Positions 18,319 to 49,333 of a DNA stretch of 58,356 bases are shown piece after piece; positions within the stretch are counted from its first letter, which is position 1, and every line of letters begins with the position of its first letter. Where the stretch lies: NCBI GenBank assembly GCA_964347155.1, contig CAYFXR010000161.1, positions 1-58,356 on the forward strand. Reading direction: 5' to 3'. Below the pieces are notes generated by a model that had not been told where the DNA came from, made no database searches, and worked only from the letters and a program-made list of their open reading frames with translations. The position numbers and the translations under genes were made by a program. This stretch comes from an uncultured Nitrospiraceae bacterium (GTDB taxonomy: Bacteria > Nitrospirota > Thermodesulfovibrionia > UBA6902).

Positions 18319-18434
18319 AATGACACCTCTTTTTTTTGATCGCCTCTCATTTAAAACGTATTTTATAAAAAACATCTATAAATTTTTGAACCTGCATTGC
18401 ATATCTATTCATGTGAGAATCCCTCAATTTAGGT

Positions 18435-28711: not shown

Positions 28712-30901
28712 CTACCTAGACAATGCAGGGGTCACAGATTTCCTGATATTATTTGAAAGATTTACTGTATCCTCCCAGGTATTTCCACCGTCAGTTGACC
28801 GCCTGAAATATATCTCATAATTATCCGTTGCAGCATACTGCCACACTACGTAAATCTCTGTTCCAGCAATCGTAATAACAGGGTTCTTTGACTCCCCTTT
28901 CATGGTGTTCAGTCTTACTGTAGCACCCCAGGTATTTCCACCGTCAGTTGACCGCCTGAAATATATCCTGTAATTATCCCTTTTACCATACTGCCATACT
29001 GCGTAAATGTCTGTCCCTTCAACCGCTATGGCAGGGTTCTTTGACTTCCCTTTCATGGTGTTCAGTCTTACCGTAGCACCCCAGGTATCTCCTCTGTCGG
29101 TTGACCGCCTGAAATATATCCTGTAATTATCCCTTTCACCATACTGCCATACTGCGTAAATGTCTGTTCCCTCAACCGCTATGGCAGGGTTCTTTGACTT
29201 GCCTTTCATGGTGTTCAGTCTTACTGTAGCACCCCATGTATCTCCTCCATCGGTTGACCGCCTGAAATATATCCTGTAATTATCCTTTATACCATCCTGC
29301 CATACAAGATTTATTAATGATAAGCAGTCAGTATCATCTAAGTCTGTGGAACCATCGCAGTCGTTATCTAAAGAGTCATTACAGGTAATTTCTTGATTTT
29401 CATCCTTTATGTCTGGAGAACATGTATTAATTACCTCACCTCCCTGACAAGTCAACATGCCTGTTGATACACATTCACCCAAACCACAATTTGTCGTCGA
29501 AGTGACATAATGTTCATCAGCGGTTCCATCACAGTCGCTGTCTACACCGTCACAGTCAGAATCGTCTCCTGTCGGGCTGCCTTCTGTACAGGAGTCAACT
29601 TCTATACCATTAACACAGATTTTCTGACCTGTAGAAGTGCATGCTCCTCGTCCACATTCAGTATCTGTTATTACATAATCCTCATCATCAAATCCGTCAC
29701 AGTCATCATCCATACCGTCACAAGTTGCATCATCTGGAGCAGCTCCTGCAAAAGGGTCGCATGTGTCTATCAAGCTTCCGCTCTGGCACTCAAGCTGGCC
29801 GGTATTGTTATTACATGCACCTGTTCCACAACTGGTTTGTGTTGGTACATAATCTTCATCAGCACTACCATCACAGTCATTGTCAATGCCATCACAATTG
29901 CTATCATCTGCGCTTGGATGGACAGTGTCATCATTATCATTGCAGTCAACATCAGGAAGATATCCGTCTCCGTCAATATCAACCGGGATGAACTGCTTTA
30001 TTTGATTGTTTTTTGTATCAGCGATATAGACATTTCCTGATGAGTCTACTACTACTCCATGAGGATAATTCAACTGACCGTCTGCTGTTCCATATGAACC
30101 CCACTTAACGACAAAACTGCCATCAGATTTCAACCTCTGTACCCTGTTATTATTCGAATCAGCAACATAGAGATCTCCGGATGTTCCTACTGATATTCCA
30201 TATGGATAATTAAACTGACCATCGCCTGCGCCGTTAGAACCCCATGATGCGACAAAATCACCGTTAGCACTGAACTTCTGGATTCTATGGTTTCCTGTAT
30301 CAGCAACATACACATTACCTGATGCATCTTCTACTGCTATCCCATATGGATAACTAAACTGACCGTCGCCTGTACCGTTTGAGCCCCATGCGGTAATAAA
30401 TACACCATTTGAATTGAACTTCTGAACCCTGTGAAGACCTGAATCAGTAACATACACATTTCCAGATGCATCCACGGTTATTCCCTGTGGATAGATAAAC
30501 TGTCCGCTACCTGTACCATATGAACCCCATTCTGTAATAAAATCGCCAAGAGAACTGAATTTTTGGACCCTATTATTTCCCCAATCAGCAACATACACAT
30601 TACCTGATGCATCTACAGCTATCCCATATGGATAACTAAATTGGCCGTCACCTGTACCGTATAAGCCCCATGAAGTGACAAAATTACCGTTAGCACTGAA
30701 CTTCTGGATTCTGTTATTATTCGAATCAACCACATAAACATTGCCGGATATATCTAATGCTAATTTATATGGATTATTAAATTGACCGTTACCTGTACCT
30801 TTTGAGCCCCATTTATTGTTAAATTGATATTCGACAGCATGCACACACGTGTAAAGAAATAGCATGATAAAAGTAACTGATAAGATAAGGCCCTTTTTCA
30901 T
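28712..30901 (-). CDS. secreted multidomain protein: NHL repeats + MopE-type Cys/Asp-rich metal-binding motifs + BNR/Asp-box repeats
   Basis: 729 aa with a signal peptide. Six NHL-like units (GxGxGQFxxPxGIAVDxSGNVYVAD), four CDGxDNDCDG modules and four 51-aa units containing STDGGxTW. Confidence 0.8.
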   Translation of the reverse strand: MKKGLILSVTFIMLFLYTCVHAVEYQFNNKWGSKGTGNGQFNNPYKLALDISGNVYVVDSNNNRIQKFSANGNFVTSWGLYGTGDGQFSYPYGIAVDASGNVYVADWGNNRVQKFSSLGDFITEWGSYGTGSGQFIYPQGITVDASGNVYVTDSGLHRVQKFNSNGVFITAWGSNGTGDGQFSYPYGIAVEDASGNVYVADTGNHRIQKFSANGDFVASWGSNGAGDGQFNYPYGISVGTSGDLYVADSNNNRVQRLKSDGSFVVKWGSYGTADGQLNYPHGVVVDSSGNVYIADTKNNQIKQFIPVDIDGDGYLPDVDCNDNDDTVHPSADDSNCDGIDNDCDGSADEDYVPTQTSCGTGACNNNTGQLECQSGSLIDTCDPFAGAAPDDATCDGMDDDCDGFDDEDYVITDTECGRGACTSTGQKICVNGIEVDSCTEGSPTGDDSDCDGVDSDCDGTADEHYVTSTTNCGLGECVSTGMLTCQGGEVINTCSPDIKDENQEITCNDSLDNDCDGSTDLDDTDCLSLINLVWQDGIKDNYRIYFRRSTDGGDTWGATVRLNTMKGKSKNPAIAVEGTDIYAVWQYGERDNYRIYFRRSTDRGDTWGATVRLNTMKGKSKNPAIAVEGTDIYAVWQYGKRDNYRIYFRRSTDGGNTWGATVRLNTMKGESKNPVITIAGTEIYVVWQYAATDNYEIYFRRSTDGGNTWEDTVNLSNNIRKSVTPALSR
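28715..29302 (-). repeat. 153-nt near-identical tandem repeats (3 full + 1 partial) in the 3' part of the NHL/BNR gene
   Basis: The W codons of successive WQxG units lie at 29302 and 29149 (153 nt apart). The protein units are nearly identical (WQYG[EK]RDNYRIYFRRSTD[RG]G[DN]TWGATVRLNTMKGKSKNPAIAVEGTDIYAV). Confidence 0.85.
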
Positions 30902-31147
30902 TTTTAAACCCCCACTTAAAATTAGCCCAAGTATGAGAAGTTGCTTAATATAAAAAATTATTTATTTAAATATTTTTAAATAAGATTGTCCCTTTTTAAA
31001 TATAAAACCTTATATTAAGTGTAAATTATTTTATCATAAATGTCAATATATTTTACATTTTAAAATTGGTATTTTATCTTTTTTCATATGTTTATATATT
31101 TTCCCTGTTTAAAACGAAAATGGGTTTTAATCCCTCCCTGCCCCGCT

Positions 31148-31382
31148 TTAATCAAAAAATGCATTTCAAATAATGCAGGCTTTGTGAAAGAAATTATTTT
31201 TCGATACCTTAGACGCAATTCCAACTAATCTATTGGAAATATGTTTGTTCCCCCTCACCCTTTCCCTCTCCCGCCAGGGGAGAGGAGATTTGAAAGGATG
31301 CCATTCATCCCCTTGCACAGCAAGGGATATTCTGGCAAAATTTTTATAAATCTTGTTATAATGTCTGCATTATTTGGGTTAA
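31148..31382 (+). repeat. MITE/REP-like element with a different, GC-rich internal module (copy F, 235 bp)
   Basis: The left end TTAATCAAAAAATGCATTTCAAATAATGCAGGC... and right end ...CTGCATTATTTGGGTTAA are conserved. The interior carries CCTCTCCC-GCCA-GGGGAGAGG and CCCTTGC-ACA-GCAAGGG hairpins. Confidence 0.75.
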
Positions 31383-31445
31383 CGGTATGGTTTTATAACA
31401 GGGTAAATAATTAAGGAAAGCAGTCAGAATAGAAATAACCTTACA

Positions 31446-32030
31446 TTATCCAGTATCAATCAATCCCTTTTCAATTGCGATAGCGACAGCCTGGGTTCTG
31501 GTTATCGCATCAAGTTTCTGCATAATATTATTAATATGGAAATTTACCGTCCTTTCACTTATTTCAAGAATTATTGATATATCCCAAGAGCTTTTGCCTT
31601 TTTTTAGCCACTTCAACACTTCTTTTTCTCTCAAAGAGAGTGGAGAAATATTCATTTTTTTACTGAGATAATGGCTCTGCAGGGCTTCATTAATATTTGA
31701 AATTATTTCTCTATCCTCAAAAGGCTTGGTGATATAATCAAATGCTCCCAACTTTATCGCTTTGACAGCATCTTTAATATCTCCATAGCCTGTAAGCATG
31801 ACTACAATTAAATCTTTATTTATCTTCTTAATTTCTTCAAGAACGTTAAGCCCGTTCATTCCGGGAAGCTTGACATCCAATAAAATCAGATTGGGCAATT
31901 CTTTCTTTACTTTTCTTAGAGCCTCTTTACCATTGCCAGCAACAATGGTTTTGTATCCCTCTAATCTTAGAGATTTTGAGAGAATCAACCGCATGTCCTT
32001 ATCATCATCAACGATCAGAATTTTATTCAT
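31446..32030 (-). CDS. response regulator, NarL/LuxR family (REC + HTH)
   Basis: 194 aa. Receiver domain ILIVDDD...LLDVKLPGMNGL and a LuxR-type HTH (LSLREKEVLKWLKKGKSSWDISIILEISERTVNFHINNIMQKL). Confidence 0.9.
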   Translation of the reverse strand: MNKILIVDDDKDMRLILSKSLRLEGYKTIVAGNGKEALRKVKKELPNLILLDVKLPGMNGLNVLEEIKKINKDLIVVMLTGYGDIKDAVKAIKLGAFDYITKPFEDREIISNINEALQSHYLSKKMNISPLSLREKEVLKWLKKGKSSWDISIILEISERTVNFHINNIMQKLDAITRTQAVAIAIEKGLIDTG

Positions 32031-32088
32031 GTCCCAAGAACTCTTTTTTGCAAATGATACTTATTATTAAAAAAATCATTGAATTTAA

Positions 32089-32667
32089 TCAACTTTTCTC
32101 TATAAATCCGCCACCATCTTCCTTTATAAAAAATAACAGTATAGTTGAAAAAGCTACGACTATTGAGGCAAGATAAAACAAGGATTTAAGGCCATAGAGT
32201 TTAACCAAATAACCGCCTAAAAAAAGACCCGCTGCCGAAGAAAGACCAACTATTGCATTAAACTTACCTATACTCCTTCCTCTTTTTGCCTTTACTGTCA
32301 AATCTCCTAGTAATGATGTACTTATGGTACTTGCCATACCGTTTGTTATTCCAAGCATGGCCTGAAGAATATATAATTGATAGACATTGTTTATAATTGT
32401 ATAAAGAAAGAGAACAACTGCGTCTGTATATGCAGTAAGAAATAAAAAGAATTTTCTTCCCAATTTATCAGAGAAACGGCCTGCAAGATAAGTAGTTGCT
32501 GATTGAACGAGCACCATAATGCTGAAAGCCAAACCAAGTTTTTCCATCCCGCCGCTCAATTTCTCAACCTGCAACACGTAAAAAGGCCCGATAAATCCCA
32601 AAACAATTGCCCATATCGAGCTTACCGTGGTAAATACTTTGAGGTTTCTGGCGTTTGATGAGCTCAA
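32089..32667 (-). CDS. half-size (6-TM) MFS-type transporter, possibly truncated
   Basis: Contains the MFS motif-A-like GRFSDKLGRK and six predicted TM helices. The proposed TTG start lies 5 nt after the maturase stop; the ORF-track ATG would overlap the maturase by 76 nt. No second half follows. Confidence 0.5.
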   Translation of the reverse strand: MSSSNARNLKVFTTVSSIWAIVLGFIGPFYVLQVEKLSGGMEKLGLAFSIMVLVQSATTYLAGRFSDKLGRKFFLFLTAYTDAVVLFLYTIINNVYQLYILQAMLGITNGMASTISTSLLGDLTVKAKRGRSIGKFNAIVGLSSAAGLFLGGYLVKLYGLKSLFYLASIVVAFSTILLFFIKEDGGGFIEKS

Positions 32668-32672
32668 TAGTC

Positions 32673-33962
32673 TTAGGCTTTCATCTGATACTTTATATCC
32701 TGTGTGATAAATGACTCTAATGTAGCATCGAGATAAGGCTTTTTGCAATCAACGTCATCAATATTACCGTCCCTCAATAGTCTCATAAATCTGCATCCAC
32801 CAAAACAGAGCGGAAGATACTCGCAGTCAAGACACTTGTCTTTTTTCCACAGGTCGATATTATGGGACTCTCTATAGTCTTTTATGCCTGTCACCAAATC
32901 ACCAACTTCAAAACCTTTCCAACCAACGAACGCAGGGCATTTATAAAACGTTCCATTATAGTTGACGATAATATCATCCTTGAATTCTATTGCACATGGT
33001 AACGGAATAATTTTATGGGTATTAAAACCTCTCTTTAATATCTCTTCTCTGAGATAAATGCTTGCTTCTATAATCCATGGTTCATTTATAGACTCTGCAC
33101 CATCCCTGAAATCAGGCAGTGCAAACTCCTCTAAAACCTTCGTAACCGGATCAAATTTTAAAGTAGAGATCTTATCAGGTGTGATTCCCCTCTCAATCAA
33201 GTAATCGAGGAGAAAAGGAAAGTCTTTATAATTTTCTTTAGTATAGTTACCTCCTATCTGAACTTTTATTAGCTTACAAACATCCTTCACGTTGCGAATG
33301 ATGATATCAAATGTGCCTGAACCTGTTTTAAAAGGCCTATATTCATCATGATTTTCTTTTAATCCGTCTATTGTGATTTTTGCATCTTTTAATCCATAAG
33401 GTAGAAGTTCCTCTGCCCTTTTTTTCGTAAGAAGCGTACCATTAGTTATCAGACCGAATTTGTAGTTTAGACCTTTTCCTTCAGCAGATGTCTTCAACTT
33501 TCTAGAAATGTATTTGATAGTATCAAAACTAAGAAGAGGCTCTCCGCCATAAAAGTCGACATTAACATATTTCCCTCTGATAAGGTATTTTGTAATAAAA
33601 TCTATTAACAGGTCTACTGTTTCCGAAGACATATAATGTTTGCCCTTCATCTTTCCTTCAAAACAGTATTTACAGGCAAGATTGCAGTCAAGGTTCAAGA
33701 CAACAATAGCATTAAAATGTCTCTTTCTGTCAGCCTCCTTAAGAGACTCAAATATTTCTTTATTTTCTTCATTTTCGTTGGGCACTAAAAAGCCGAGACT
33801 AGCTAGTGTTTTCTCATCCGAACTTGAAATGTTACCTTGCCTTATTGATTTTAAAATGGATTTATGAAGAAGGATTTTAGATGCCCTCTTAGTAGAATAA
33901 AAGAGGAGATAATCAGGATTCTCATTATAATGATAGAATTTAATATATCTGGATAATTGCAT
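32673..33962 (-). CDS. radical SAM/SPASM-type peptide maturase
   Basis: 429 aa. The CxxxCxxC motif is at C93/C97/C100 (LDCNLACKYC), after an N-terminal extension of about 85 aa (RRE-like position). The Cys-rich C-terminus reads CPAF...CLDCEYLPLCFGGCRF. Confidence 0.85.
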   Translation of the reverse strand: MQLSRYIKFYHYNENPDYLLFYSTKRASKILLHKSILKSIRQGNISSSDEKTLASLGFLVPNENEENKEIFESLKEADRKRHFNAIVVLNLDCNLACKYCFEGKMKGKHYMSSETVDLLIDFITKYLIRGKYVNVDFYGGEPLLSFDTIKYISRKLKTSAEGKGLNYKFGLITNGTLLTKKRAEELLPYGLKDAKITIDGLKENHDEYRPFKTGSGTFDIIIRNVKDVCKLIKVQIGGNYTKENYKDFPFLLDYLIERGITPDKISTLKFDPVTKVLEEFALPDFRDGAESINEPWIIEASIYLREEILKRGFNTHKIIPLPCAIEFKDDIIVNYNGTFYKCPAFVGWKGFEVGDLVTGIKDYRESHNIDLWKKDKCLDCEYLPLCFGGCRFMRLLRDGNIDDVDCKKPYLDATLESFITQDIKYQMKA

Positions 33963-34022
33963 TTTTTAGAGAGTAAATACAAAAAAGACTTGAGAGCACA
34001 CTTGCACGCAAAACGGGTACAT

Positions 34023-34047
34023 GTCATCCTGAACGAAGCTAAGGATC
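34023..34047 (+). repeat. GTCATCC-type REP-like remnant
   Basis: GTCATCCTGAACGAAGCTAAGGATC, related to the other GTCAT(T/C)CC elements in the window. Confidence 0.4.
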
Positions 34048-34197
34048 TTATAAGCTATTGATTCAAAAAATTCCTAGGCCGCAACTCCGCTTGAACCTGT
34101 ATTACATTGAGCTGAATTTTTGAACTTGTACAAATGCCTCAATTAATAAAATTCAGGATAGTTAGCTTCTCTTTAAATAAATGTTAGTTTATTATTG

Positions 34198-34411
34198 CCT
34201 AAATTGAGCGATTCTAATATGACTAGATGTTCAATGCAGGTTCAAAAATTTATAATGCGATTGGATATTTGTAATTGTCTTACTGCTATATTTAGTCTTC
34301 CACTTAAAGAGTGAAGATCATAAAAGCAAGACAATAACTGTACTAAGGTATCGCTATGTATTTTTTCACCTGCCTCGCACATCTTTATGAAATTAAATCG
34401 CTCAATTTAGG
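34198..34411. repeat. 214-bp segment bounded by a perfect 16-bp inverted repeat
   Basis: CCTAAATTGAGCGATT (34198-34213) pairs with AATCGCTCAATTTAGG (34396-34411). Nested inner inverted repeats ATTGTCTTA/AAGACAAT. The segment begins 6 nt after the candidate precursor stop. Confidence 0.7.
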
Positions 34412-34417
34412 TAATAT

Positions 34418-34519
34418 TTATGCTCTATACACTGTAAAAGCTCCATGGCAGCAAGGCCCCAAGGGACCGATTGAATCTTTGATTCCCTTATCGAGAATTA
34501 TAATTTTTTCCTTGCTCAT
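34418..34519 (-). CDS. candidate RiPP precursor peptide (33 aa)
   Basis: Read by hand: AAAGAGGGGGGCAA-ATG, then MSKEKIIILDKGIKDSIGPLGPCCHGAFTVYRA*. Strong SD, same strand as and upstream of the rSAM/SPASM gene. Below the ORF-track length cut-off. Confidence 0.45.
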   Translation of the reverse strand: MSKEKIIILDKGIKDSIGPLGPCCHGAFTVYRA

Positions 34520-34569
34520 TTGCCCCCCTCTTTAAATAAATTGAGATTTGATCTCCAAAGGAGATATTC

Positions 34570-34598
34570 ACTTTACTATATAAAATTTAATATGTTAA
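34570..34598 (-). promoter_or_regulatory. sigma70-like promoter candidate for the precursor ORF
   Basis: Minus-strand read TTAACA-N17-TAAAGT, immediately after the TonB-receptor stop. The AT-rich context makes chance matches likely. Confidence 0.3.
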
Positions 34599-36494
34599 TC
34601 AAAATGTTAATCTTACCCCTCCTTCTATCCATCTCCCTGGATTCTTAAACACCTCCATCAGATATTGAGAGCCATTAAAGATATTATGAGCACTGAAATA
34701 GAGTTCAATTGCTTTATCATCATTTTTGAAAGTACTCTTTGTCAAATGAATGTCCCATATAAACGAGTTGTATTTTCCCTTGACAAAAGGCGTAGAATTC
34801 CACCATATATAGTGACCCTTAAGCAAAGCCTTAAATGATTTATTGTCACTGTATTGAGTGCCGAAGTCATAGGTGTATTCTGGAATACCTGGGAGTTTCT
34901 CTCCTGTGTCTCTGTTTTTTGCATTAACATATATAAATCCGGTTAATAGAGAAACATTATAAACAGGAATTGTCTTGACCTCTAATTCAAATCCCTGCCT
35001 CCTCTGCTTTTCTTTATTTGCTGATGTAAATGTACCATCAGGCAATTCCTCATCAAAAATTGCATCTGATATATAATGTCTGAACAGACTTGCTCTTAAC
35101 CATAGATATTTAAGTACTGTAGATTCAATGCCTGCCTGAATTGACAGGACCTTTTCAACTTCAAGATCAGGATTAGGCACAGAAAAAAATCCTGTCCCGA
35201 AAGTTTCAGAAAGAGAAGGGATATTGAACCCTCTTGCAACGTATCCTCTTAAAATACTTCTTTCATCAAACGTATAAGTAACTCCAATGCTAGGGCTCAG
35301 GAAATCACCATTGGTTGTTGTATGGTCATACCTGATGCCGGGGTTGAAGGAAAATTCATTAATTGTAATCGTGTCATTGGCAAAAACTGCCCATTTTTCA
35401 AGATGCTGCATCTCATCTGTAATGCTATTTGATTCCAATTCGCCATTATCATAATCCGCACCAACAACTATGTTATTTATACCTTGCTTCCACATAAGCT
35501 TCATACTACCACCGTTTCCTGTATCGTCAAAAGTACTTTTCATTAAATTATCACCTGTGCTCATTTGATCCCAGAAAAACTCTGTATTTTGTCTTGATGT
35601 CCTGAGAGAAAGGCTTAAATCTGCCGCATCGGTTATTGAATAATTCATAGATAAAGTGGAAAAGAGATACTCAAAATCATTGCTGAATGAAAGGTCAAAC
35701 TCAGGGTCTTCACCTCTCCCCCTTGAACCCTTATTGTATCCAAAGGTAAATATGATATCTGTCTTGTTGTTAATATCCAGTTTTAATTTTGTGTACAGGT
35801 TATTTTCAAAAAAATTGGTATTTGGCCTGAGGCCGCCAGATGTGAGATTCCCTGCATAAATATAATAGCCAAAATTATTCTCTCCACCTGATACCTCAGC
35901 CCTGTAATCTCCGGTACCCCTTTCTCCATAAGATGACAAAATGGCACCTCTCATCTTTTCCTCTCCTTCTACAGGTTTAGTTATTATGTTTATCACTCCA
36001 CCAAGAGATGAACCCCATGAAGATGAGGCAGAACCTTTTATAACTTCTACCCTCTCTATATTTTGAACAGGTATTGCGCTTATGTCGGCAAAGTTGTCTG
36101 AAAGATTATTGAATGTAACGCCGTCTATCATAACCAGTACATGTTTGAAATCAGATCCCTGTATAAGTGCCCTTGTTTCACTGCCCGGTCCGCCTCTGAT
36201 ATCCATCTGTACGCCAGGGACGATATTAAGGACATCTGTTAATGTATGTGCATTCATATCTTTAATATCTTTTGCGGTAATAACGGAAATATTTTCTGCA
36301 ACCTGAGAAATAGGCTTAATGGTTCTAGTGGGTGTAACAACCAGTTCATCTTCTTTAAAGTACATCTTTAGTATTTTTATTTCTTCTTCAGTTTGGGCAG
36401 AGGTAAAAGTAGGATAAAGTATTATATTAAGTAATAAGCATAGTGAAAATAAGAGATAACGTAGATGTACGTTTCCTGTTTTAATTTTGATCAT
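34599..36494 (-). CDS. TonB-dependent outer-membrane receptor
   Basis: The start is set at MIKIKTGN, with SD AGGTGA 7 nt upstream. Signal peptide, plug region (ISVITAKDIKDMNAHTLTDVLNIVPGV), a beta-barrel and a C-terminal ...GGVRLTF. Confidence 0.9.
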   Translation of the reverse strand: MIKIKTGNVHLRYLLFSLCLLLNIILYPTFTSAQTEEEIKILKMYFKEDELVVTPTRTIKPISQVAENISVITAKDIKDMNAHTLTDVLNIVPGVQMDIRGGPGSETRALIQGSDFKHVLVMIDGVTFNNLSDNFADISAIPVQNIERVEVIKGSASSSWGSSLGGVINIITKPVEGEEKMRGAILSSYGERGTGDYRAEVSGGENNFGYYIYAGNLTSGGLRPNTNFFENNLYTKLKLDINNKTDIIFTFGYNKGSRGRGEDPEFDLSFSNDFEYLFSTLSMNYSITDAADLSLSLRTSRQNTEFFWDQMSTGDNLMKSTFDDTGNGGSMKLMWKQGINNIVVGADYDNGELESNSITDEMQHLEKWAVFANDTITINEFSFNPGIRYDHTTTNGDFLSPSIGVTYTFDERSILRGYVARGFNIPSLSETFGTGFFSVPNPDLEVEKVLSIQAGIESTVLKYLWLRASLFRHYISDAIFDEELPDGTFTSANKEKQRRQGFELEVKTIPVYNVSLLTGFIYVNAKNRDTGEKLPGIPEYTYDFGTQYSDNKSFKALLKGHYIWWNSTPFVKGKYNSFIWDIHLTKSTFKNDDKAIELYFSAHNIFNGSQYLMEVFKNPGRWIEGGVRLTF

Positions 36495-36521
36495 ATTACA
36501 ATCACCTATTCCTGTCATAAA

Positions 36522-36551
36522 AGTCTACCTGTCTAAAATGACAGGTGGACT
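36522..36551. promoter_or_regulatory. 12-bp-arm palindrome in the divergent TonB-receptor/SBP control region
   Basis: AGTCTACCTGTC-TAAAAT-GACAGGTGGACT with one G-T mismatch. A further CCTGTCAT copy at 36511-36518 could pair alternatively. Confidence 0.4.
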
Positions 36552-36687
36552 TTTAAATAGTACATCTTTTCCATAATAATAATGTAAGTGCAATAATATT
36601 CAAAAAATTATCACATATAATTTTCAGATATATTAAATATAAGTATTTTTTTTGTCTACACCTTAAAACATATTTGAAACAGATACT

Positions 36688-37617
36688 GTGTTAAAAATAA
36701 ACAAAAATCATCAACTTTTAAATTTATATAATTGGCTCATTGTATTATTCATTCTGTCTTGCCACTCCATAGTGTCTGCCGATGGAATTGTAGCAGTCCA
36801 GAGCTTTCTTATTAAACCCTATAATGATGCCCTGGAAGGTTTTAAAAGTATTTGTAACTGTAATGTAAAAGAGTTTGTTGTTTCTGAAATAGAAGGAGCA
36901 GATATAATAAGCGAGATTCACAAAGCAAAACCTGAAATTATTCTCGCCATAGGCATTGATGCACTTGAAAGGATTAAAAATATTAAAGATATACCTATTG
37001 TTCATATGATGATTCTGAATCCGCAATCCGTGACGTCCTACAATAAGAATATCACCGGCGTAAGTCTGTATATATCTCCCGAAAAACAGTTATCCTTCTT
37101 GCGGAAAGTACTGCCCGAAGCAAAAAACATTGGACTTCTGTACGATCCGGCAAGAACAGGAGATTTTGTTGAGAAAGCAAAACGTGCTGCCACAGCAACA
37201 AGTATTAAACTATTTGCAAAGGAAATTCATAAATCAAGAGATTTCTCCGCTCTTTTAAACGGTATGAAGGGAGAGATAAATGCCTATTGGATGCTGCCGG
37301 ATTTAACTGTTGTTACTCCTGAAACGGTTGAATTGTTATTCCTCTTTTCTATCGAAAACAGAATTCCGGTAATTACTTTCTCAAACAAATACCTTGAAAT
37401 GGGTGCCTTGATGTCATTTGATATTGATACCCGTGACATAGGAAAACAGGCAGGAGAAACAGCCAATAACATACTGTCCGGAATGGATGTAAAGAACATG
37501 AAAATGACTGATGCAAGAAAAATAAATATCAATATTAACCGGAAAACAGCAAAGAAGCTTGGAATAACCATGAATGAGCGTATGTTCGGTAACGAAAGGT
37601 TAATGAACCAACAATAA
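36688..37617 (+). CDS. periplasmic substrate-binding protein (ABC_sub_bind-like), sensor-associated
   Basis: 309 aa with a signal/TM N-terminus and a family-typical ...IPVITFSNKYLEMGALMSF...INRKTAKKLGITM. Located 4 nt upstream of the histidine kinase. Confidence 0.7.
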   Translation: MLKINKNHQLLNLYNWLIVLFILSCHSIVSADGIVAVQSFLIKPYNDALEGFKSICNCNVKEFVVSEIEGADIISEIHKAKPEIILAIGIDALERIKNIKDIPIVHMMILNPQSVTSYNKNITGVSLYISPEKQLSFLRKVLPEAKNIGLLYDPARTGDFVEKAKRAATATSIKLFAKEIHKSRDFSALLNGMKGEINAYWMLPDLTVVTPETVELLFLFSIENRIPVITFSNKYLEMGALMSFDIDTRDIGKQAGETANNILSGMDVKNMKMTDARKINININRKTAKKLGITMNERMFGNERLMNQQ

Positions 37618-37621
37618 CACC

Positions 37622-39181
37622 ATGAGGTTTCTGAAACACAATAAAATAAGCTTTGGCACGAAGATTTTTTATGTATTTACTATTTTCATCGTACTCACCT
37701 ATATCTCCTTCTCATCATTTTTTATTTATTATCAAAGTAAAACTTTGAAAAAAAATCTTATAAATGAAGGCAAATTGCTTATAGACCTTCTTTCATATAG
37801 CTCAAGACTCGGCGTGTTTGCAGAGAATGCAAATTTACTGAAAGACCCCATAGAAGGCATTATGCATAACAAAGAAGTAATGCTCGTACAGGTATTTACT
37901 GATAACGGCAGACAATTGAAAAAGCAAGAGAGAACCGGGAAAGAAACGAATGAAAAATCTTCAAAAAAGTATTTCACAAGACACGACAAAATAATGAATA
38001 TGATAAAAAAATCGAAATCAACCTATTATTCTGAAGACAATGATACATTCGAATTCTGGGCACCTGTTATTTCAAAAAGAACTAAGTCTGAAGAAGAAGG
38101 TTTATTTTTCGAAGAAAATGTATCTCAAACTGATGACACAATAATCGGATTTGTCAGGATCATATTTACGACAGAATTGCTGAATAAAAATCTGAAAGGC
38201 ATGTTGTTAAAGAGTATTTTCATCCCGATTACTTTTATGGTACCCGGCTGGTTCATATTATATTTTATAGTCAAGGGAATAACAAGCCCTCTTAACAGGC
38301 TGTCAGATGGTGTTACAGCAGTTGGAACAGGAAGTTCAGTGGAAAGGGTATCTGTTGAAACAAAGGATGAAATAGGCAAACTTGCACAGGCTTTCAACGA
38401 TATGGTCGAATCATTAAAGACTAAGGATGTTGAAAAACAACAGATTGAAGAGCAGTTGAGACAGGCGCAAAAGATGGAGGCAATCGGGACGTTTGCCGGA
38501 GGGATTGCTCATGATTTTAATAATATCCTGAACGTAATAATAGGTTATGGAAATTTATTACTGAAACAAATGAATTCTCAAGATTCTGAAAGAGACTATC
38601 TTGATAACCTGCTATCTACGGCAAAAAGGGCATCATACCTTACAAAGAGCCTCCTTACATTGAGCAGACAACAAGAGATAAACCTTGAGCCGGTAAATAT
38701 CAATGATATTATCAGGAATTTAGAGAAAATCCTGGTGAGTCTTATGAGTAAAGATATAGAAATCAGCACTAACCTTTCAGAGGAAGACCTCGTTGTTATG
38801 GCAGATACAGGCCAAATAGAGCACGTCCTGATAAACCTTGTAACAAATGCACGGGATGCAATGCCTCATGGAGGAACGTTCACAATATCTACAGAATGTG
38901 TCAATAAGGATAAACAATTTATCATATTCTCCGGTCATGGAGATCCCGGTCAATATGCCGTGATATCTGTTACGGATACAGGTATCGGTATGAACGATCA
39001 GATTAAAGAGAAAATATTCGATCCTTTTTTCACAACAAAAGAGCAAGGTAAAGGCACGGGTCTTGGGCTCTCCATGGTATACGGGATCATCAAACAACAC
39101 AATGGCTATATCAATGTCAGCAGCAAACCAGGCCAAGGGACAATATTTAAAATTTACCTCCAGCTAAGCAAACTTCGTTAG
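37622..39181 (+). CDS. sensor histidine kinase (TM-sensor-HAMP-HisKA-HATPase)
   Basis: 519 aa with H-box FAGGIAHDFNNIL, N-box LVTNARDAM and G-boxes DTGIGM/GTGLGLSMV. Confidence 0.92.
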   Translation: MRFLKHNKISFGTKIFYVFTIFIVLTYISFSSFFIYYQSKTLKKNLINEGKLLIDLLSYSSRLGVFAENANLLKDPIEGIMHNKEVMLVQVFTDNGRQLKKQERTGKETNEKSSKKYFTRHDKIMNMIKKSKSTYYSEDNDTFEFWAPVISKRTKSEEEGLFFEENVSQTDDTIIGFVRIIFTTELLNKNLKGMLLKSIFIPITFMVPGWFILYFIVKGITSPLNRLSDGVTAVGTGSSVERVSVETKDEIGKLAQAFNDMVESLKTKDVEKQQIEEQLRQAQKMEAIGTFAGGIAHDFNNILNVIIGYGNLLLKQMNSQDSERDYLDNLLSTAKRASYLTKSLLTLSRQQEINLEPVNINDIIRNLEKILVSLMSKDIEISTNLSEEDLVVMADTGQIEHVLINLVTNARDAMPHGGTFTISTECVNKDKQFIIFSGHGDPGQYAVISVTDTGIGMNDQIKEKIFDPFFTTKEQGKGTGLGLSMVYGIIKQHNGYINVSSKPGQGTIFKIYLQLSKLR

Positions 39182-39269
39182 AAGGACATGTCTTTCCTTT
39201 TTAGTCTATTTTCAACAACAATAAATTGCTCAATTTTATTTGCACATTAGGTTATTAAAAATATTTTAC

Positions 39270-39296
39270 TAAAGATATTTTTCATATTACCGACAA
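39270..39296 (+). promoter_or_regulatory. sigma28-type promoter candidate upstream of a GGDEF gene
   Basis: TAAAGATA-TTTTTCATATT-ACCGACAA: 11-nt spacer, 6/8 match in the -10 box. Confidence 0.5.
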
Positions 39297-39424
39297 GATC
39301 TTTAAATAAGACATTGTCTGTGCCTAAGAGAGGAGTGATATTTCTTTAATTGATACATTAGATTTATGGGCTCAATTTTTTGAATAACCAGTCAAACATA
39401 CTTAAAGAAGGGGAGCTAGCATAA

Positions 39425-40747
39425 ATGGCTCAGGAATTTCAACTCACAGAAATTGATACAGAATTTGAAGAGAAAGTCTATGTAATAGCAGACGAGATTC
39501 TTAAAATACTCAAGGAACTATCTCAAGAAAACAAGAGACAGATAAGCAGTAAGAATATAGCAGATAAGATGTTTCGGAAGGATTCTGTTAAAAATGTCCT
39601 AAATAGTCGTTACCATGAAACATCAGAAAATGGCGAGGAGACGCGGTGTCTCAAGGAATTTTCTAATATGGTTCTTAATAAGGTTACTGAAATTGTGCCG
39701 ACCCCTGTCATAGAACAGTTAAGTAATTTGAAGAAACAGATCCATAATAAAGAAATTATTGGAGGTTCTAAAGAGTGGTTTGAAACACCATTCAATATTA
39801 TTAAAAAATATATATATGCTCTTTCAAGCCGTAACCAAGAACTTGAGGAATTTATGCAGCAAACGATGCTGTATCTCACAAATACAGAGACACACATAAA
39901 AGGCGAATTATCTTCCCGGCAGCGAAAATTTTATGATGACAGGGACTTCGAAAATATTATAGCTAAAAATATGAATGTGATAAAGGATAATATCAATATC
40001 TCTGGCGACTTCAATAGGGTCAGGATGGCATTCATGGACAAGATAGAGAACATTAACAAATGTATCAAGCAAAAGAGGCAGCAGGATATGTTAAATTTAA
40101 AAGAAACAGAAAAAACTTTGGAAGAAATGAGCAAGAAAATGACAGAAATTAAACGTGAAGCCGATGACATAAGGAAGCAATCACAGGAGATAGAATTTGA
40201 ATCTGTCCGTGATGCTCTCACAAGGCTTTATAACCGGAAGGCTTATGACGAGAAAATTATAGAAACACTGGCCCATTTTGAACGGTATAATGTGTCTTCC
40301 TCTTTGATGCTATGTGATATAGACTTTTTTAAAAAAATAAATGATAATTTCGGGCATCAAATAGGAGATCTTGCCCTCAAGAAACTCGCTGTTCTTTTAA
40401 ATGAGAGATTAAGGAAAAATGATTTTATATCAAGATATGGAGGAGAAGAGTTTGCCATTATTCTTCCCCATACAAATCTGGACGGCGCTTTTAATGCAGG
40501 TGAAGGCATCAGGTCTTACATTGATAAATCAGAGTTTTCTTATAAAAATCAAACAATCTCTCTTACAATAAGTGTGGGAATCAGCTCCTTCATGAAAGGG
40601 GACAATAGCAACACAGTCTTTGAAAGGGCAGACAGTGCCCTTTACCTTGCCAAAAGGTCTGGCCGTAATACGGTAAAAACTGAAAAAGATGTCATCGAAG
40701 AAGGAACAGTCTTACATGAAGACCCACTTGATGAGAGATCTGATTAG
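39425..40747 (+). CDS. diguanylate cyclase (coiled-coil N-terminal region + GGDEF)
   Basis: 440 aa with an RYGGEEF active site and the RKND I-site 5 residues upstream. Confidence 0.9.
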   Translation: MAQEFQLTEIDTEFEEKVYVIADEILKILKELSQENKRQISSKNIADKMFRKDSVKNVLNSRYHETSENGEETRCLKEFSNMVLNKVTEIVPTPVIEQLSNLKKQIHNKEIIGGSKEWFETPFNIIKKYIYALSSRNQELEEFMQQTMLYLTNTETHIKGELSSRQRKFYDDRDFENIIAKNMNVIKDNINISGDFNRVRMAFMDKIENINKCIKQKRQQDMLNLKETEKTLEEMSKKMTEIKREADDIRKQSQEIEFESVRDALTRLYNRKAYDEKIIETLAHFERYNVSSSLMLCDIDFFKKINDNFGHQIGDLALKKLAVLLNERLRKNDFISRYGGEEFAIILPHTNLDGAFNAGEGIRSYIDKSEFSYKNQTISLTISVGISSFMKGDNSNTVFERADSALYLAKRSGRNTVKTEKDVIEEGTVLHEDPLDERSD

Positions 40748-40796
40748 TATACTGTTCATAAAATCTTAATTAAAGTCTCTGAGTATAAACTACACT

Positions 40797-40843
40797 GTCA
40801 TTCCCCGACTTGCCCTGAACCAGGAGCGGTTCAGGGTTGAATC
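40797..40843 (+). repeat. GTCATTCC/CCCTGAACC REP-like element
   Basis: GTCATTCCCCGACTTG-CCCTGAACC-AGGAGC-GGTTCAGGG-TTGAATC. Perfect 9-bp stem, 50 nt after the GGDEF gene stop. Confidence 0.65.
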
Positions 40844-40881
40844 TTAAAAAAAAAGATATTTCACGAGCCATTGACCAAGGC

Positions 40882-40909
40882 TAAAGTAATAACTATAAAG
40901 TACCGATAC
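40882..40909 (+). promoter_or_regulatory. sigma28-type promoter candidate of the che operon
   Basis: TAAAGTAA-N12-ACCGATAC, about 80 nt upstream of the HEAT-repeat gene ATG. Confidence 0.55.
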
Positions 40910-40990
40910 TTATGCATAGACTTATAAATTATTTCACTGATTTAAGGAATCAGAAATATCATAAATAATTAAGTATACATCGAGGTAAAA

Positions 40991-42415
40991 ATGCATACGG
41001 CTAAGTTTACAAAACTAATCAGAAATCTCGATCACGAAGATGCATCAAAAAGGCGATCTGCTGCAGAAGCCCTTTCTGAAGGAGATGAAAGAGCTATTTA
41101 TCCCTTAATTAAGGCCTTGAGAGATGACAATTTTGGAGTACAGGATGCTGCAATGCGTTCTCTTATGGAGATAAAAAGGGAATCTACCGCATATATGATA
41201 CTCCCTCTTCTCAGGGAAAACGCTTTTTTAAGAAACACTGCACTTATTATTCTAAGAGAATTAGGGAAAACCACTGTTCCTCTTCTTCACGCCCTGTTAA
41301 GTGATAAAGACGATGATGTAAGAAAATTCGCCCTGGACCTCATTTATGATATCCAATATTGTGATTACCCTGAAAAATTGGCTGAGATGCTCACAGATGA
41401 TCCAAATTCAAATGTAAGGGCAGCTGCTGCAAAAGTTATAGGGATATTACAATTCAGAGAAGCAATTCCTCAACTCCTCAGTGCCTTAGAAGATGAGGAA
41501 TGGGTATGCTTCTCTGCCCTTGAAGCACTCACCAATCTAAGAGATGCAAACTCAGTAGAGTCTATTGCAGTTCTTTTGAAGAGTCCCTCAGAGACAATTC
41601 GTTTTGCAGCTATTGAGGCTCTCGGAAAAATCGGTTCATTAAAAGCAGAGAAACCTCTCGTTGAACATATATCAAAAACTTACGGTCTTCAAAAGATGGC
41701 ATTGATAAAAAGTCTTGTACAGATAGGAACTATTCCCTCAATACCGGGTATATCTGATGTTCTCATTGATATGCTCAAGAATGATGACTGGGAAGAAAAA
41801 TTCATTGCCATTAAAGGTTTGACTTATTTGAAAGAAAAAAAGTCAATCCATTATATAGTCGACGCCGCAGGTTCTCTCGATTTGTCAGATCCGGAAAATG
41901 AAAACAAGCTGTATGTGCTCAGAGAAGCAATTAAAAGTTTTGGCTGCACTAAATCCCTCATAGATATTCTTGATGACAAAACCTTTAAATATCGGGGAAA
42001 GGTCTTTGCGATAGAGACAGTAGGAGACTTAAAGTGCAAAAATGCAGTCTCCGTTCTCATCAAACTTCTCAAAAGCGGATACAGGGATATAAGAAGATCC
42101 AGCATAAAATCACTAAGTCAAATTGACAGTGATGAAACCAAAGAATATTTCATTGAAGCAATTAATGACCATGACAGCCACGTCAGGAAGACAGCTGTTA
42201 CTGCACTTGGAAAGATAAACGATATGGCAGCCTTTGAACCTCTCATGAAAATGCTACACAACGAAAAATACAATGACGTAATTGACGAGTTTGTTAAATC
42301 GCTTCTGAAGATTAATTCTACATTATTTATATCACGTATCAACGAGTTCAACGATTATATTAAAGAGAGTGCCGGAAGATATGCAGAATTCCTCAAACCG
42401 GAGGTTACATGTTAA
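40991..42415 (+). CDS. HEAT-repeat (PBS-lyase-type) protein, first gene of the che operon
   Basis: 474 aa with repeated units (D.D..VR..A..ALG.I). Its stop overlaps the cheR start. Confidence 0.8.
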   Translation: MHTAKFTKLIRNLDHEDASKRRSAAEALSEGDERAIYPLIKALRDDNFGVQDAAMRSLMEIKRESTAYMILPLLRENAFLRNTALIILRELGKTTVPLLHALLSDKDDDVRKFALDLIYDIQYCDYPEKLAEMLTDDPNSNVRAAAAKVIGILQFREAIPQLLSALEDEEWVCFSALEALTNLRDANSVESIAVLLKSPSETIRFAAIEALGKIGSLKAEKPLVEHISKTYGLQKMALIKSLVQIGTIPSIPGISDVLIDMLKNDDWEEKFIAIKGLTYLKEKKSIHYIVDAAGSLDLSDPENENKLYVLREAIKSFGCTKSLIDILDDKTFKYRGKVFAIETVGDLKCKNAVSVLIKLLKSGYRDIRRSSIKSLSQIDSDETKEYFIEAINDHDSHVRKTAVTALGKINDMAAFEPLMKMLHNEKYNDVIDEFVKSLLKINSTLFISRINEFNDYIKESAGRYAEFLKPEVTC

Positions 42416-43224
42416 ATATTCCTCTTTCTGATTCAACATTCAAAAATATAAGGGACTGTATATATGAAAAATGTGGTATCTATATATCCGACACCAAAAA
42501 ATATCTTATCGAAAACAGGCTTGCAAGAATAATACAAGAAAATAATATAAAAAGTTTTGAAGATTACCTGCACATTATCAAAGGTAATTCCAACGGCTCA
42601 GAACTCAACAGGCTCTTTGACGCCGTCACGACAAATGAAACTTATTTTTTCAGGGAGCCACAACAACTTGATGTATTTGCTGACGAAATATTACCTAAAT
42701 TATCGAGACAAAAAAAGAGAATGAAAATATGGTCTGCAGCATGCTCTACTGGTGAAGAACCATATACAATTTCAATGATAATGGTAGAGAAACTGTTAAG
42801 TCCAAGAAATTTTGATATCTATGCTTCAGACATAAGTCAAGGAGTTTTACATTCTGCACAGAATGCCGTTTATAACTCTTATTCCGTGAGAAATATACCT
42901 GAATCTTATCTTAAAAAATATTTTTCAAACAATGGACACCTTTATCATCTTAACTCCTTTGTTAAAAATACCGTTCAATTCATAAAAATAAATCTTATCG
43001 ATGAAAAAAAAATGAAATCATTCCGGGGAATAGATGTTATCTTCTGCCGCAATGTACTTATTTATTTTGATACCAAGGCAAAACAGAAAACAGTCTCATA
43101 TCTTTACGATAGTTTAAAACCCGGAGGTTATTTATTTATAGGGGTTTCCGAAAGTCTTCACAATGTAACGAGGGCATTCAGGCCATGTGTTATAAACAAA
43201 GTCATTATATATCAAAAAGCATGA
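42409..43224 (+). CDS. cheR: chemotaxis protein methyltransferase CheR
   Basis: 271 aa with TNETYFFREPQQ and IWSAACSTGEEPYT motifs. Confidence 0.93.
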   Translation: MLNIPLSDSTFKNIRDCIYEKCGIYISDTKKYLIENRLARIIQENNIKSFEDYLHIIKGNSNGSELNRLFDAVTTNETYFFREPQQLDVFADEILPKLSRQKKRMKIWSAACSTGEEPYTISMIMVEKLLSPRNFDIYASDISQGVLHSAQNAVYNSYSVRNIPESYLKKYFSNNGHLYHLNSFVKNTVQFIKINLIDEKKMKSFRGIDVIFCRNVLIYFDTKAKQKTVSYLYDSLKPGGYLFIGVSESLHNVTRAFRPCVINKVIIYQKA

Positions 43225-43270
43225 AAATGAAAGAAACACAAATGTTTTTTTTATTTGGGAGGGGAACGGC

Positions 43271-43654
43271 ATGAAAATTTTGATTGTAGAAGATTGCCAA
43301 ACTACAAGAAAACTGCTTGGACATTATCTGAAATCCATGGGATATTCGGTTATATTTGCTGAAAACGGTCTTGATGCCCTTGAGAAACTTGGAACAGATA
43401 CGGTCAACCTCATAATGACAGATTTGAACATGCCATATATGGATGGATTGGAATTTGTAAAGACATTGCGGTCAGATTCAAACCTGTCAGATATCCCTGT
43501 CCTTATGGTCACAACTGAAAACGATGAAAAGGAGCGTGAAAAGGCCTTCAGTATCGGTGCGAACGGGTATATCGTAAAGCCGGTAACAGGGGACATTATT
43601 GAACAGAATATAAAGACAATTTTACATAAGGTATTAAAAAAGGGAGGAAATTAA
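43271..43654 (+). CDS. CheY-like single-domain response regulator
   Basis: 127 aa with a receiver domain (ILIVEDC...MTDLNMPYMDG...YIVKP). Confidence 0.9.
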   Translation: MKILIVEDCQTTRKLLGHYLKSMGYSVIFAENGLDALEKLGTDTVNLIMTDLNMPYMDGLEFVKTLRSDSNLSDIPVLMVTTENDEKEREKAFSIGANGYIVKPVTGDIIEQNIKTILHKVLKKGGN

Positions 43655-44044
43655 ATGTCCGACAATAAAATGAAAATACTAATTGTTGATGACTTTTCCA
43701 CGATGCGAAGAATAATCAAAAACCTTCTCAAACAACTTGGCTACGAAAACATAGAAGAAGCTGAGGACGGTGCACAGGCCTTGTCAAAATTAAAAAGCAA
43801 TGATTTTAGTTTTGTTATTAGCGACTGGAATATGCCCAATATGGACGGGCTTGAGCTTTTAAAAAATCTACGAAGTGATGATTCATTGAAAGACATACCT
43901 GTCCTTATGGTTACTGCTGAGGCAGAGAAGGAAAAAGTTGTAACTGCAATACAATCAGGAGTCAATAATTATATCGTCAAGCCTTTTACACAGGAAGTTT
44001 TAAAAGAGAAAATGGACAAGATACTTGAAAAACTCTCATCATAG
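43655..44044 (+). CDS. cheY: chemotaxis response regulator CheY
   Basis: 129 aa with [13 protein letters not shown]...[15 protein letters not shown]...NNYIVKPFT. Confidence 0.95.
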
Positions 44045-44081
44045 CAGCAGGTTAAATTTTATTTGTGGATGGAGATAAGAA

Positions 44082-47492: not shown

Positions 47493-47638
47493 TAAAGGAT
47501 ATCAAATGCAACAATATAGGATTTCACCTTTGTAGAGGCACTTTTGAATGACTATGGTGTTTAAATTCACGAGACCTTGATTTTCAGGGATTTGAGAATT
47601 TTTGAAGATCCTGAATAAAAAATAAGGAGGTAAGATAT

Positions 47639-48094: not shown

Positions 48095-48147
48095 ATTGAG
48101 AAAACAATTTCAACGTAAACCTCTATCTATGATACAGGACAATCTAC

Positions 48148-49188: not shown

Positions 49189-49238
49189 TCAAATTTGTGA
49201 GAGGAAAGAGTCTATTTTTCATAATCAGGAAAAAACGC

Positions 49239-49266
49239 TAAAGTTTTTACAAAATATGTCCGATTA
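49239..49266 (+). promoter_or_regulatory. sigma28-type promoter candidate upstream of the two-CW gene
   Basis: TAAAGTTT-N12-TCCGATTA. The -35 half is identical to that of the fliC promoter. Confidence 0.55.
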
Positions 49267-49333
49267 ATAAATGTGATTTATGGATAAAATGAGTAAGCAG
49301 TAAAAAAATAAACCAAAAAGAGGGAGAGGTAAA

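Follow-up and report, generated by a model that had tools for sequence, protein, structure and literature searches.

A probable geopeptide RiPP cassette linked to a TonB-dependent receptor and a sensor kinase in an uncultured Nitrospiraceae bacterium

Introduction

Among cysteine-containing peptides modified by radical S-adenosylmethionine (SAM) enzymes with a SPASM domain (sactipeptides), many are bacteriocins, and there are several microcins that use TonB-dependent receptors. Radical SAM/SPASM enzymes also make cofactors, among them pyrroloquinoline quinone (PQQ) and mycofactocin. In the methanobactin operon, the precursor MbnA is encoded together with a TonB-dependent receptor (MbnT), a periplasmic protein (MbnE), and an exporter (MbnM). 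A further family of peptides that are made by ribosomes and modified after translation (RiPPs), the geopeptides, is already named through a model of its precursor (TIGR04229) and a model of its maturase (TIGR04280). Here we analyze a locus in 58,356 nucleotides of DNA from an uncultured Nitrospiraceae bacterium (contig CAYFXR010000161.1 of assembly GCA_964347155.1; the whole stretch is hereafter the window). Five co-oriented genes on the minus strand encode a TonB-dependent receptor, a 33-residue peptide with two adjacent cysteines, a radical SAM enzyme, a half-size protein of the major facilitator superfamily (MFS), and a LuxR-type regulator; a periplasmic binding protein and a sensor histidine kinase are encoded divergently beside them. 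An initial annotation, made from the letters of the sequence, had described the five genes, and all are present in the open reading frame (ORF) listing, with Pfam and NCBIfam matches for the larger genes.

The locus is very probably a RiPP cassette of the geopeptide family and, as that family is already named, it is not a new kind of system. It shares with the geopeptide system the maturase model, the position of the precursor gene, the leader motif, the spacing, and the pair of adjacent cysteines (CC). It differs in a peptide too divergent for the geopeptide model, whose core reads Gly-Pro-x3-CC and whose tail is aromatic and basic ([HY]xAFxx[YF]R[KRA]). The Nitrospirota-type clade to which the window belongs adds the half-size MFS protein and the LuxR-type regulator to the geopeptide layout, and the window, unlike other geopeptide loci, has a 224-nt hairpin element in place of a terminator.

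Like the methanobactin operon, the cassette combines a small cysteine-containing precursor with a TonB-dependent importer, a binding protein, a secondary transporter as exporter, and a regulator. The initial annotation had drawn this likeness from the importer and the exporter; the link to the receptor is real, whereas the half-size MFS protein proved to be a lineage-specific extra. No MbnB/MbnC (DUF692-type) pair is found among the cassette proteins, and the sole modifying enzyme is the radical SAM enzyme. Where methanobactin loci have a sigma/anti-sigma pair, the cassette has a histidine kinase and a binding protein of another family (PF04392), and copper-related genes are not conserved near it. 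With LuxP/LuxQ, the cassette shares an orphan binding protein that lies beside a kinase (a hybrid kinase in most homologues) and has no transporter partner. Here, however, the binding protein is of another family, its ligand is presumed to be a ribosomal peptide that would enter through a TonB-dependent receptor, and the interaction of binding protein and kinase is presumed as well.

Comparisons were made across 21 loci, the window included, found through maturase homologues with identities of 75% down to ∼37-44%; one extra locus (L096) entered the survey through a receptor search and not through its maturase. Pattern scans of genome collections and metagenomes yielded true family members in 2 of 39 candidate stretches and in ∼10 of 80 kept loci. 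The remaining pattern-scan loci hold ∼30%-identical SPASM enzymes of gut metagenomes and were excluded from use. Statements on gene-called neighborhoods refer to loci with gene tables and enough flanking sequence. The family reaches well past Geobacter, into Nitrospirota and Desulfobacterota.

The Radical SAM Maturase

The maturase gene (positions 32673-33962, minus strand) encodes 429 residues that match TIGR04280, the model named geopeptide radical SAM maturase, over its full length (607.2 bits against a cutoff of 400; E = 1.7e-182; its residues 1-426 align with profile positions 1-428 of 428), and every testable defining feature of this model is present. From the sequence alone, the enzyme had been read as a peptide maturase with a CxxxCxxC motif, an N-terminal extension of the type of a RiPP recognition element (RRE), and a SPASM-like C-terminus. 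The model match, together with the conserved precursor described below, supports that reading, and the cysteine pattern and predicted fold agree with it. In an alignment of 79 homologues, the radical SAM cluster (C93xxxC97xxC100) is invariant, as are all seven cysteines of the SPASM pattern (C323-x13-G337-x4-C342; C377-x2-C380-x5-C386-x3-C390; C406). The Pfam SPASM model did not match the maturase at E of 0.01 or better.

The structure predicted by AlphaFold2 (AF2) from the same 79 homologues (pLDDT 90.9, pTM 0.89) has an N-terminal domain (approximately residues 1-80) with strands at residues 7-11, 18-23, and 28-33 and helices at residues 34-42, 47-55, and 63-79. This order of three strands and three helices predicts an RRE-like domain of PqqD-type topology; the Pfam PqqD model had no match in the maturase. 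In a Foldseek search of the PDB, the best match to the predicted structure was the thioether synthase CteB (5why; E = 2e-21 over the full length, 446 columns, TM-score 0.66), followed in order by SuiB, the anaerobic sulfatase-maturating enzyme (anSME), TigE, and ChlB. A sequence profile search of the PDB likewise placed CteB first (2e-31). CteB, SuiB, and TigE carry RRE domains. The next-best NCBIfam models (TIGR04463, PapB, CefB, the SCIFF maturase, CcpM, and QhpD), all far under their own cutoffs, describe cysteine-directed peptide maturases. More than 2000 homologues of the maturase were found, and several of them, from Nitrospirota, Thermodesulfovibrionales, and Deltaproteobacteria metagenome-assembled genomes, are named "geopeptide radical SAM maturase" by NCBI.

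Maturases of SCIFF peptides, ranthipeptides, and sactipeptides (CteB and PapB, with QhpD as a relative) likewise combine an RRE-like domain, a radical SAM domain, and a seven-cysteine SPASM domain, and act beside a gene for a cysteine-containing precursor. The window enzyme nevertheless scores far below the cutoffs of the SCIFF maturase model TIGR03974 (121.8 bits against 425) and the PapB model NF047865 (147.3 bits against 340). SCIFF and PapB precursors have multiple cysteines (six cysteines or a CxxxD/E repeat), whereas that of the window has two adjacent cysteines and no conserved acceptor. Moreover, geopeptide hosts are diderm, and the SCIFF, ranthipeptide, and sactipeptide systems have neither the link to a TonB-dependent receptor nor that to a two-component sensor.

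The window enzyme is also like anSME in its radical SAM and SPASM fold, a fold that in anSME acts on a cysteine or serine in a peptide chain. Unlike the window enzyme, anSME is not known to have an RRE-like N-terminal domain. The anSME identity was rejected: TIGR03942 gave 74.7 bits against a cutoff of 349.45, and no sulfatase is present in any gene-called neighborhood. SCIFF/PapB, anSME, and methanobactin identities are thus ruled out, because their defining features were checked and found to be absent.

The Precursor Peptide

The precursor, MSKEKIIILDKGIKDSIGPLGPCCHGAFTVYRA (33 residues; positions 34418-34519, minus strand), is recognized by its Shine-Dalgarno sequence, its homologues, and a profile match. 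The sequence GAGGGGGG lies 5 nt upstream of the ATG and is a strong Shine-Dalgarno sequence. The peptide is laid out as the leader motif IIILDKG, a 10-residue spacer, C23-C24, and a 9-residue tail. In all 21 loci, an ORF of 30-41 residues with a strong Shine-Dalgarno sequence lies directly upstream of the maturase gene on the same strand. The encoded peptides share one layout, namely a hydrophobic leader (hhVLDxG) closing with L-[DNSK]-x-G, 8-10 spacer residues, CC, and a tail of 7-13 residues; the L096 precursor, for example, includes IVILDAGMAPTGPVICCTGFYAIYR. The distance from the leader glycine to CC is 8-10 residues in most precursors, and CC is present in all but that of L092, which has CNC and a longer spacer. 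The tail after CC differs strongly between lineages.

A profile hidden Markov model (HMM) built from 19 peptides of other loci only was searched against 1608 six-frame segments of the window. It picked out positions 34418-34519 as the sole significant match (54.3 bits, E = 5.4e-16). When the four closest loci were removed from the profile, the 33-residue ORF still scored 42.1 bits (E = 3.9e-12), with the runner-up at E = 0.13 or worse. Between the window and the closest locus, L003, 16 codons of the peptide gene differ, eight synonymously and eight nonsynonymously, and residues 5-14 and 23-30, which hold the leader motif and the CC core, have synonymous changes only. This codon pattern fits purifying selection. 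By these sequence criteria, the unannotated ORF that had been proposed from its position and Shine-Dalgarno sequence is a genuine gene that encodes a conserved precursor. A second precursor copy was searched for within the window and none was found.

The curated peptide model misses most of the family. TIGR04229, the "geopeptide" model, spans 22 positions from the leader motif through CC and has a cutoff of 30 bits, which is reached by 1 of 21 precursors (L016, 32.1 bits). Seven more have sub-threshold matches (L017, 24.9 bits; L009, 23.5 bits; L091, 17.5 bits; and four at 8-13 bits), and the window peptide has none even at E = 10. Judged by the HMM, the window peptide, despite failing this narrow model, has demonstrable homology to peptides that satisfy it. 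In public collections, these precursors are uncalled or tagged as hypothetical, and that of the window is uncalled; most thus evade annotation.

The absence of a TIGR04229 match and of a public gene call would also fit a locus that is not a RiPP cassette at all, in which an anSME-type or housekeeping radical SAM enzyme lies beside a chance 33-residue ORF, and anSME structures are among the fold matches of the maturase. This explanation is, however, already refuted. The enzyme falls far short of the anSME model and well exceeds that of the geopeptide maturase, no sulfatase lies in any neighborhood, the ORF is kept in 21 of 21 loci, and a profile that is independent of the window recovers it. 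The initial annotation had named sulfatase-linked anSME homologues and an unconserved ORF as findings that would speak against its proposal, and neither was encountered.

The L092 variant (L092:7606-7728), besides having CNC for CC, has a longer, lysine-rich spacer (MKTQEIIILNSGVENDLDSGDGKKKDYSICNCYGPIVPYY).

The Receptor and Sensor Genes

The receptor gene (positions 34599-36494, minus strand) encodes a TonB-dependent outer-membrane receptor of 631 residues with Plug (84.6 bits) and TonB_dep_Rec_b-barrel (122 bits) matches and no STN signaling extension. Its longest ORF begins at 36518, but the ATG at 36494, the start given in the initial annotation, aligns with the starts of homologues and has an AGGTGA Shine-Dalgarno sequence.

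No other neighbor accompanies the peptide and maturase as constantly as the receptor does, and this is the strongest signal in the neighborhood. It adjoins both in all loci with enough flank but one (L017, on a 2-kb contig). The linkage is kept from 75% down to 44% maturase identity and across changes in gene order, and as the maturases diverge, so do the receptors, whose identity declines from 68% to 37%. At least 30 contigs, matched by their identical lengths, were shared between the best-120 homologue lists of the maturase and of the receptor, a number that is a lower bound on co-location. A small CC-containing ORF and a TonB-dependent receptor thus recur together beside homologous maturases, as the initial annotation had envisaged. 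The receptor protein of L096 is identical to one that NCBI assigns to Geotalea uraniireducens, and L096 has the same five-gene core.

Two of the surveyed loci show variations on this arrangement. In L009, two tandem paralogous receptors, 43-45% identical to that of the window, precede the peptide and maturase (L009:2279-6328). In L017, the gene divergent from the peptide (L017:1-1000, minus strand) encodes not a receptor but a multi-transmembrane protein with an open frame of ∼340 residues; from a reading of its translation only, this protein looks like a MOP/Wzx-type exporter.

Divergent from the receptor gene is that for a PF04392 (ABC_sub_bind) periplasmic binding protein (positions 36688-37617, plus strand; Pfam, 124 bits). 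It is translationally adjacent to a gene for a sensor histidine kinase of 519 residues with sCache_4, HAMP, HisKA, and HATPase Pfam domains (positions 37622-39181, plus strand). The pair is linked to the receptor in 15 loci and in three gene orders. Most commonly, it is divergent from the receptor operon; in L012, it is downstream of the maturase; and in L014-L016, it runs co-linearly with the receptor gene but diverges from that of the peptide. Both the binding protein and the kinase are near-core members of the cassette. In gene-called loci, the PF04392 protein is always in an operon with the kinase, and no ABC permease or ATPase gene is found beside it in any of them, which argues for sensing rather than transport. 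The initial annotation had seen a kinase and response regulator pair bracketing the locus; the binding protein and kinase proved to be near-core, whereas the LuxR-type regulator is confined to the window and two relatives.

In L097, a receptor 56% identical to that of the window, a PF04392 protein, and a hybrid kinase are encoded together (L097:4565-9857), and neither a peptide nor a maturase gene was found within 8 kb of this triad. L097 may represent a listener-only or piracy genotype, or its producer genes may lie elsewhere in the genome. If the triad serves to detect a molecule from outside, a receptor-only locus of this kind would be expected.

These features also bear on the possibility that the product is a metallophore. 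As such, in anoxic, sulfidic habitats, a secreted Cys-Cys chelator would bind a thiophilic trace metal (Cu, Ni, Co, Zn, Mo, or W), and its loaded form would re-enter through the receptor; the binding protein and kinase would report this arrival and adjust production, comparable with methanobactin. The receptor is kept even in loci without the sensor pair, as in siderophore and chalkophore systems, and the invariant vicinal cysteines are plausible ligands for a soft metal. The receptor-only locus resembles xenosiderophore piracy, an Rrf2-family regulator takes the place of the LuxR-type regulator in L007, and the carriers, judged by their names, are anaerobic metal or sulfate reducers. However, the cassette has no conserved inner-membrane importer, reductase, or metal-responsive regulator, and its binding protein is tied to the kinase and not to an ABC transporter. 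A search of positions 31000-39500 for known RNAs and riboswitches (Rfam) found none at E of 1 or better, a metal or cofactor riboswitch included, and a search for Fur boxes found none within 3 mismatches. Thiols turned into thioethers would lose their character as strong ligands, and a variable tail after CC suits recognition specificity better than a fixed chelating site. Finally, the nearby secreted NHL protein with MopE-type motifs, which had been taken as a hint of a metal theme, has no counterpart beside any related cassette. We regard a metallophore as the main alternative, though a rather unlikely one.

A Model for the Cassette

We propose that the cassette makes a peptide, cross-linked through its cysteine pair, that is exported, re-imported, and sensed in the periplasm as a self-produced cue with feedback; we assign this overall model a probability of roughly 0.5. 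The RRE-like domain of the maturase would dock the leader as a β-strand, and the fixed spacer would put the cysteine pair at the active site. There, the maturase would make sulfur-to-carbon cross-links (thioethers, as in sactipeptides and ranthipeptides). CteB leaves one site of its auxiliary cluster I (Aux I) free for a substrate cysteine. Thioether-type chemistry is suggested by the seven rather than eight auxiliary-cluster cysteines, as in CteB, and by the nearest enzyme families, and we put it forward tentatively, by analogy. Because no conserved acceptor residue is visible in the precursors, other chemistry on the vicinal cysteines is possible.

The terminator or hairpin that follows the precursor gene would keep the peptide transcript above that of the enzyme. 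In the lineage of the window, the product would be exported by the half-size MFS protein, presumably as a dimer. Once outside, it would be too large for porins, and the receptor would return it to the periplasm. Since no inner-membrane importer is encoded, capture is predicted to occur in the periplasm, where the orphan PF04392 protein would bind the product and switch the kinase as LuxP does LuxQ. The LuxR-type regulator would then act on a palindrome upstream of the receptor-peptide-maturase operon and close the loop.

Parts of this model are held with different confidence. The product is probably extracellular and taken up by the receptor. Its main role may be that of a signal rather than a metal carrier, a preference that we hold at somewhat less than even odds. 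A signal is favored by the wiring of the sensor, the signaling and motility genes in the neighborhood, the lineage-specific tails, the receptor-only locus, and a clostridial precedent, and the lack of a riboswitch and of a Fur box gives it further support. The precedent comes from clostridia, in which related ranthipeptides influence quorum-sensing circuits (Chen et al. 2020, reviewed in PMC8102284). That geopeptides are autoinducers of diderm anaerobes, with tails that act as pherotypes and with receptor-only genomes such as L097 as eavesdroppers, is a more doubtful extension; if true, it would describe a class of cell-cell signaling that relies on active outer-membrane import of a RiPP.

Several observations weigh against the proposed cue. 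The geopeptide family is defined bioinformatically only, through a "hypothetical equivalog" model, and our literature search found no paper that mentions geopeptide or TIGR04280. It also found nothing relevant on radical SAM/SPASM precursor loci with a TonB-dependent receptor or on radical SAM RiPPs of Geobacter. No conserved acceptor residue is present around CC in the aligned precursors, which is unusual for substrates of thioether synthases. Neither an exporter nor a protease was found in most loci, so that secretion and leader removal are assumed. The receptor, peptide, and maturase of L009 and L011 have neither a binding protein nor a kinase nearby; therefore, sensing is not obligatory. 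The kinase of the window is without a C-terminal receiver, whereas its homologues are hybrid kinases of 620-802 residues with a Response_reg domain, and its pairing with the LuxR-type regulator is presumed only. The palindrome could alternatively be a hairpin in the 5' leader or a terminator. Lastly, the ligands of solved PF04392 proteins are Trp, Tyr, or Phe as free amino acids, not peptides (PMC10443332), although these aromatic ligands speak neither for nor against a peptide as ligand here.

The scarcity of exporters would be expected if the modified peptide remained intracellular, serving as a cofactor precursor or as a redox or regulatory peptide, with the receptor module serving separate nutrient sensing that controls expression. 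PQQ and mycofactocin provide a precedent among products of radical SAM/SPASM enzymes, and L097 shows that the receptor, binding protein, and kinase can stand alone. Such an intracellular role is nonetheless improbable. Unlike pqq and mft clusters, the loci have no linked tailoring enzymes, peptidase, or cofactor-using dehydrogenases. In most loci, the peptide gene is co-oriented directly behind the receptor gene, apparently in one operon, and in the clade of the window, a membrane transporter follows the maturase.

The strongly variable tail would also suit a microcin-like toxin of narrow spectrum that gains entry to competitors via their TonB-dependent receptor, for which sactipeptide bacteriocins and the receptors of microcins set precedents. 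The local receptor and sensor would then serve regulation or self-recognition. However, no locus has an immunity gene or a peptidase-domain ABC exporter, most have no exporter of any type, and an uptake receptor in the toxin's own operon would sensitize its producer. We consider an antimicrobial role very improbable.

In comparison, re-import and periplasmic sensing of a RiPP is an idea that follows from the wiring of the cassette and can be tested. If true, it would represent a new route of peptide signaling in Gram-negative anaerobes or, alternatively, a new class of thiol or thioether metallophore, and probably also a new radical SAM transformation of vicinal cysteines. Experiments appear feasible because G. 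uraniireducens, which is cultured, carries a receptor of this clade and the locus with the identical receptor has the same core. Two features most merit further work: the conserved grouping of the receptor with the binding protein and kinase, and the receptor-only locus.

Accessory Genes, Spacers, and Surroundings

The half-size MFS protein and the LuxR-type regulator are lineage-specific extras. The former (192 residues; positions 32089-32667, minus strand) matches positions 11-174 of the 347 of the MFS_1 profile and has approximately six hydrophobic segments by hydropathy. The initial annotation of a six-helix MFS-type protein therefore stands with regard to size and segments. Its ORF extends over positions 32089-32748, and the alignment of homologues revises the start to the TTG at 32667, which is 5 nt after the maturase stop codon. 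Homologues of 180-189 residues are present in four loci (L003:7299-7859, L005:7296-7862, L007:7301-7870, and L094:9368-9910), and L001 has a partial copy. The protein is confined to these five loci and the window, thus to only a part of the family, and no second half is encoded nearby. A stand-alone half-size MFS protein is unusual and would need a dimer to work; it is presumed to be the exporter.

The response regulator (194 residues; positions 31446-32030, minus strand) has a receiver (Response_reg, 113 bits) and a LuxR/GerE helix-turn-helix domain (GerE, 73 bits). Its orthologues in L003 (76% identity) and L005 (69%) occupy the corresponding position. The Rrf2 regulator replaces it in L007, and more distant loci are without a LuxR-type regulator.

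A palindrome, ACCTGTC-N6-GACAGGT (positions 36527-36546, no strand), lies 33 nt upstream of the receptor start and is the sole perfect copy in the window. In L003 and L005, its arms are likewise conserved upstream of the receptor gene. It was not found in L001 or L007; L007 is the locus with the Rrf2 regulator, and the L001 contig ends before the position of the regulator. From this distribution, we infer that the palindrome is a candidate operator of the LuxR-type regulator. Second copies of the form CACCTGT-N8-ACAGGTG are present upstream of an alpha-amylase gene in L003 (L003:12832-12851) and between two response-regulator genes in L005 (L005:8760-8779), and they hint at a small regulon of the regulator. 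A promoter consensus scan gave 25 matches against a shuffled expectation of 21.7, which is not above chance, and no promoter is claimed.

The peptide and maturase genes are separated by 455 nt in the window. Among 16 other loci measured, the gap is 51-88 nt in 15 and 272 nt in L092. In nearly all of these other loci, the spacer has a GC-rich hairpin followed by a T-run, which by its sequence is an intrinsic terminator or attenuator. Such terminators and attenuators set the ratio of precursor to enzyme in other RiPP operons. The spacer of L092, after the CNC precursor, has a strong hairpin. In the window, the place of the short intrinsic terminator is occupied by a 224-nt long-hairpin element (positions 34193-34416, no strand) that starts a single base past the stop codon of the peptide gene and accounts for the larger gap. 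Its 21-nt inverted terminal arms are 95% complementary, and as RNA it folds into a single long hairpin (-73.2 kcal/mol, z = -7.95). A 57-nt sequence at positions 18377-18433, just past the stop codon of another gene, is 89% identical to part of it, and the element was found in none of the related loci. Judged by these features, it looks like a mobile insertion of the miniature inverted-repeat transposable element (MITE) or repetitive extragenic palindromic (REP) type. A 46-residue ORF (positions 34242-34382) was rejected as a gene of the system, as it lies entirely within this element, which is absent elsewhere.

Beyond the regulator gene, positions 28712-30901 encode the NHL protein, a secreted protein of 729 residues with six NHL repeats, MopE-type cysteine-rich motifs, and approximately four near-identical BNR-like repeats of ∼50 residues (...YRIYFRRSTD[GR]GDTWGATVRLNTMKGKSKNPAIAVEGTDIYAVWQYG...). 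It was rejected as a member of the cassette because related cassettes carry unrelated genes at this position. The cassette as a whole lies between a large flagellar cluster (positions 1-28337, with FlhA, FliM, FliL, and FlgK) and signaling genes at positions 39425-52406. The latter are cyclic di-GMP and chemotaxis genes that encode a GGDEF protein (positions 39425-40747, next after the kinase), a HEAT-repeat protein, CheA, and a methyl-accepting chemotaxis protein. In the closest related locus, a flagellar hook gene (L003:1-169) lies beside the kinase.

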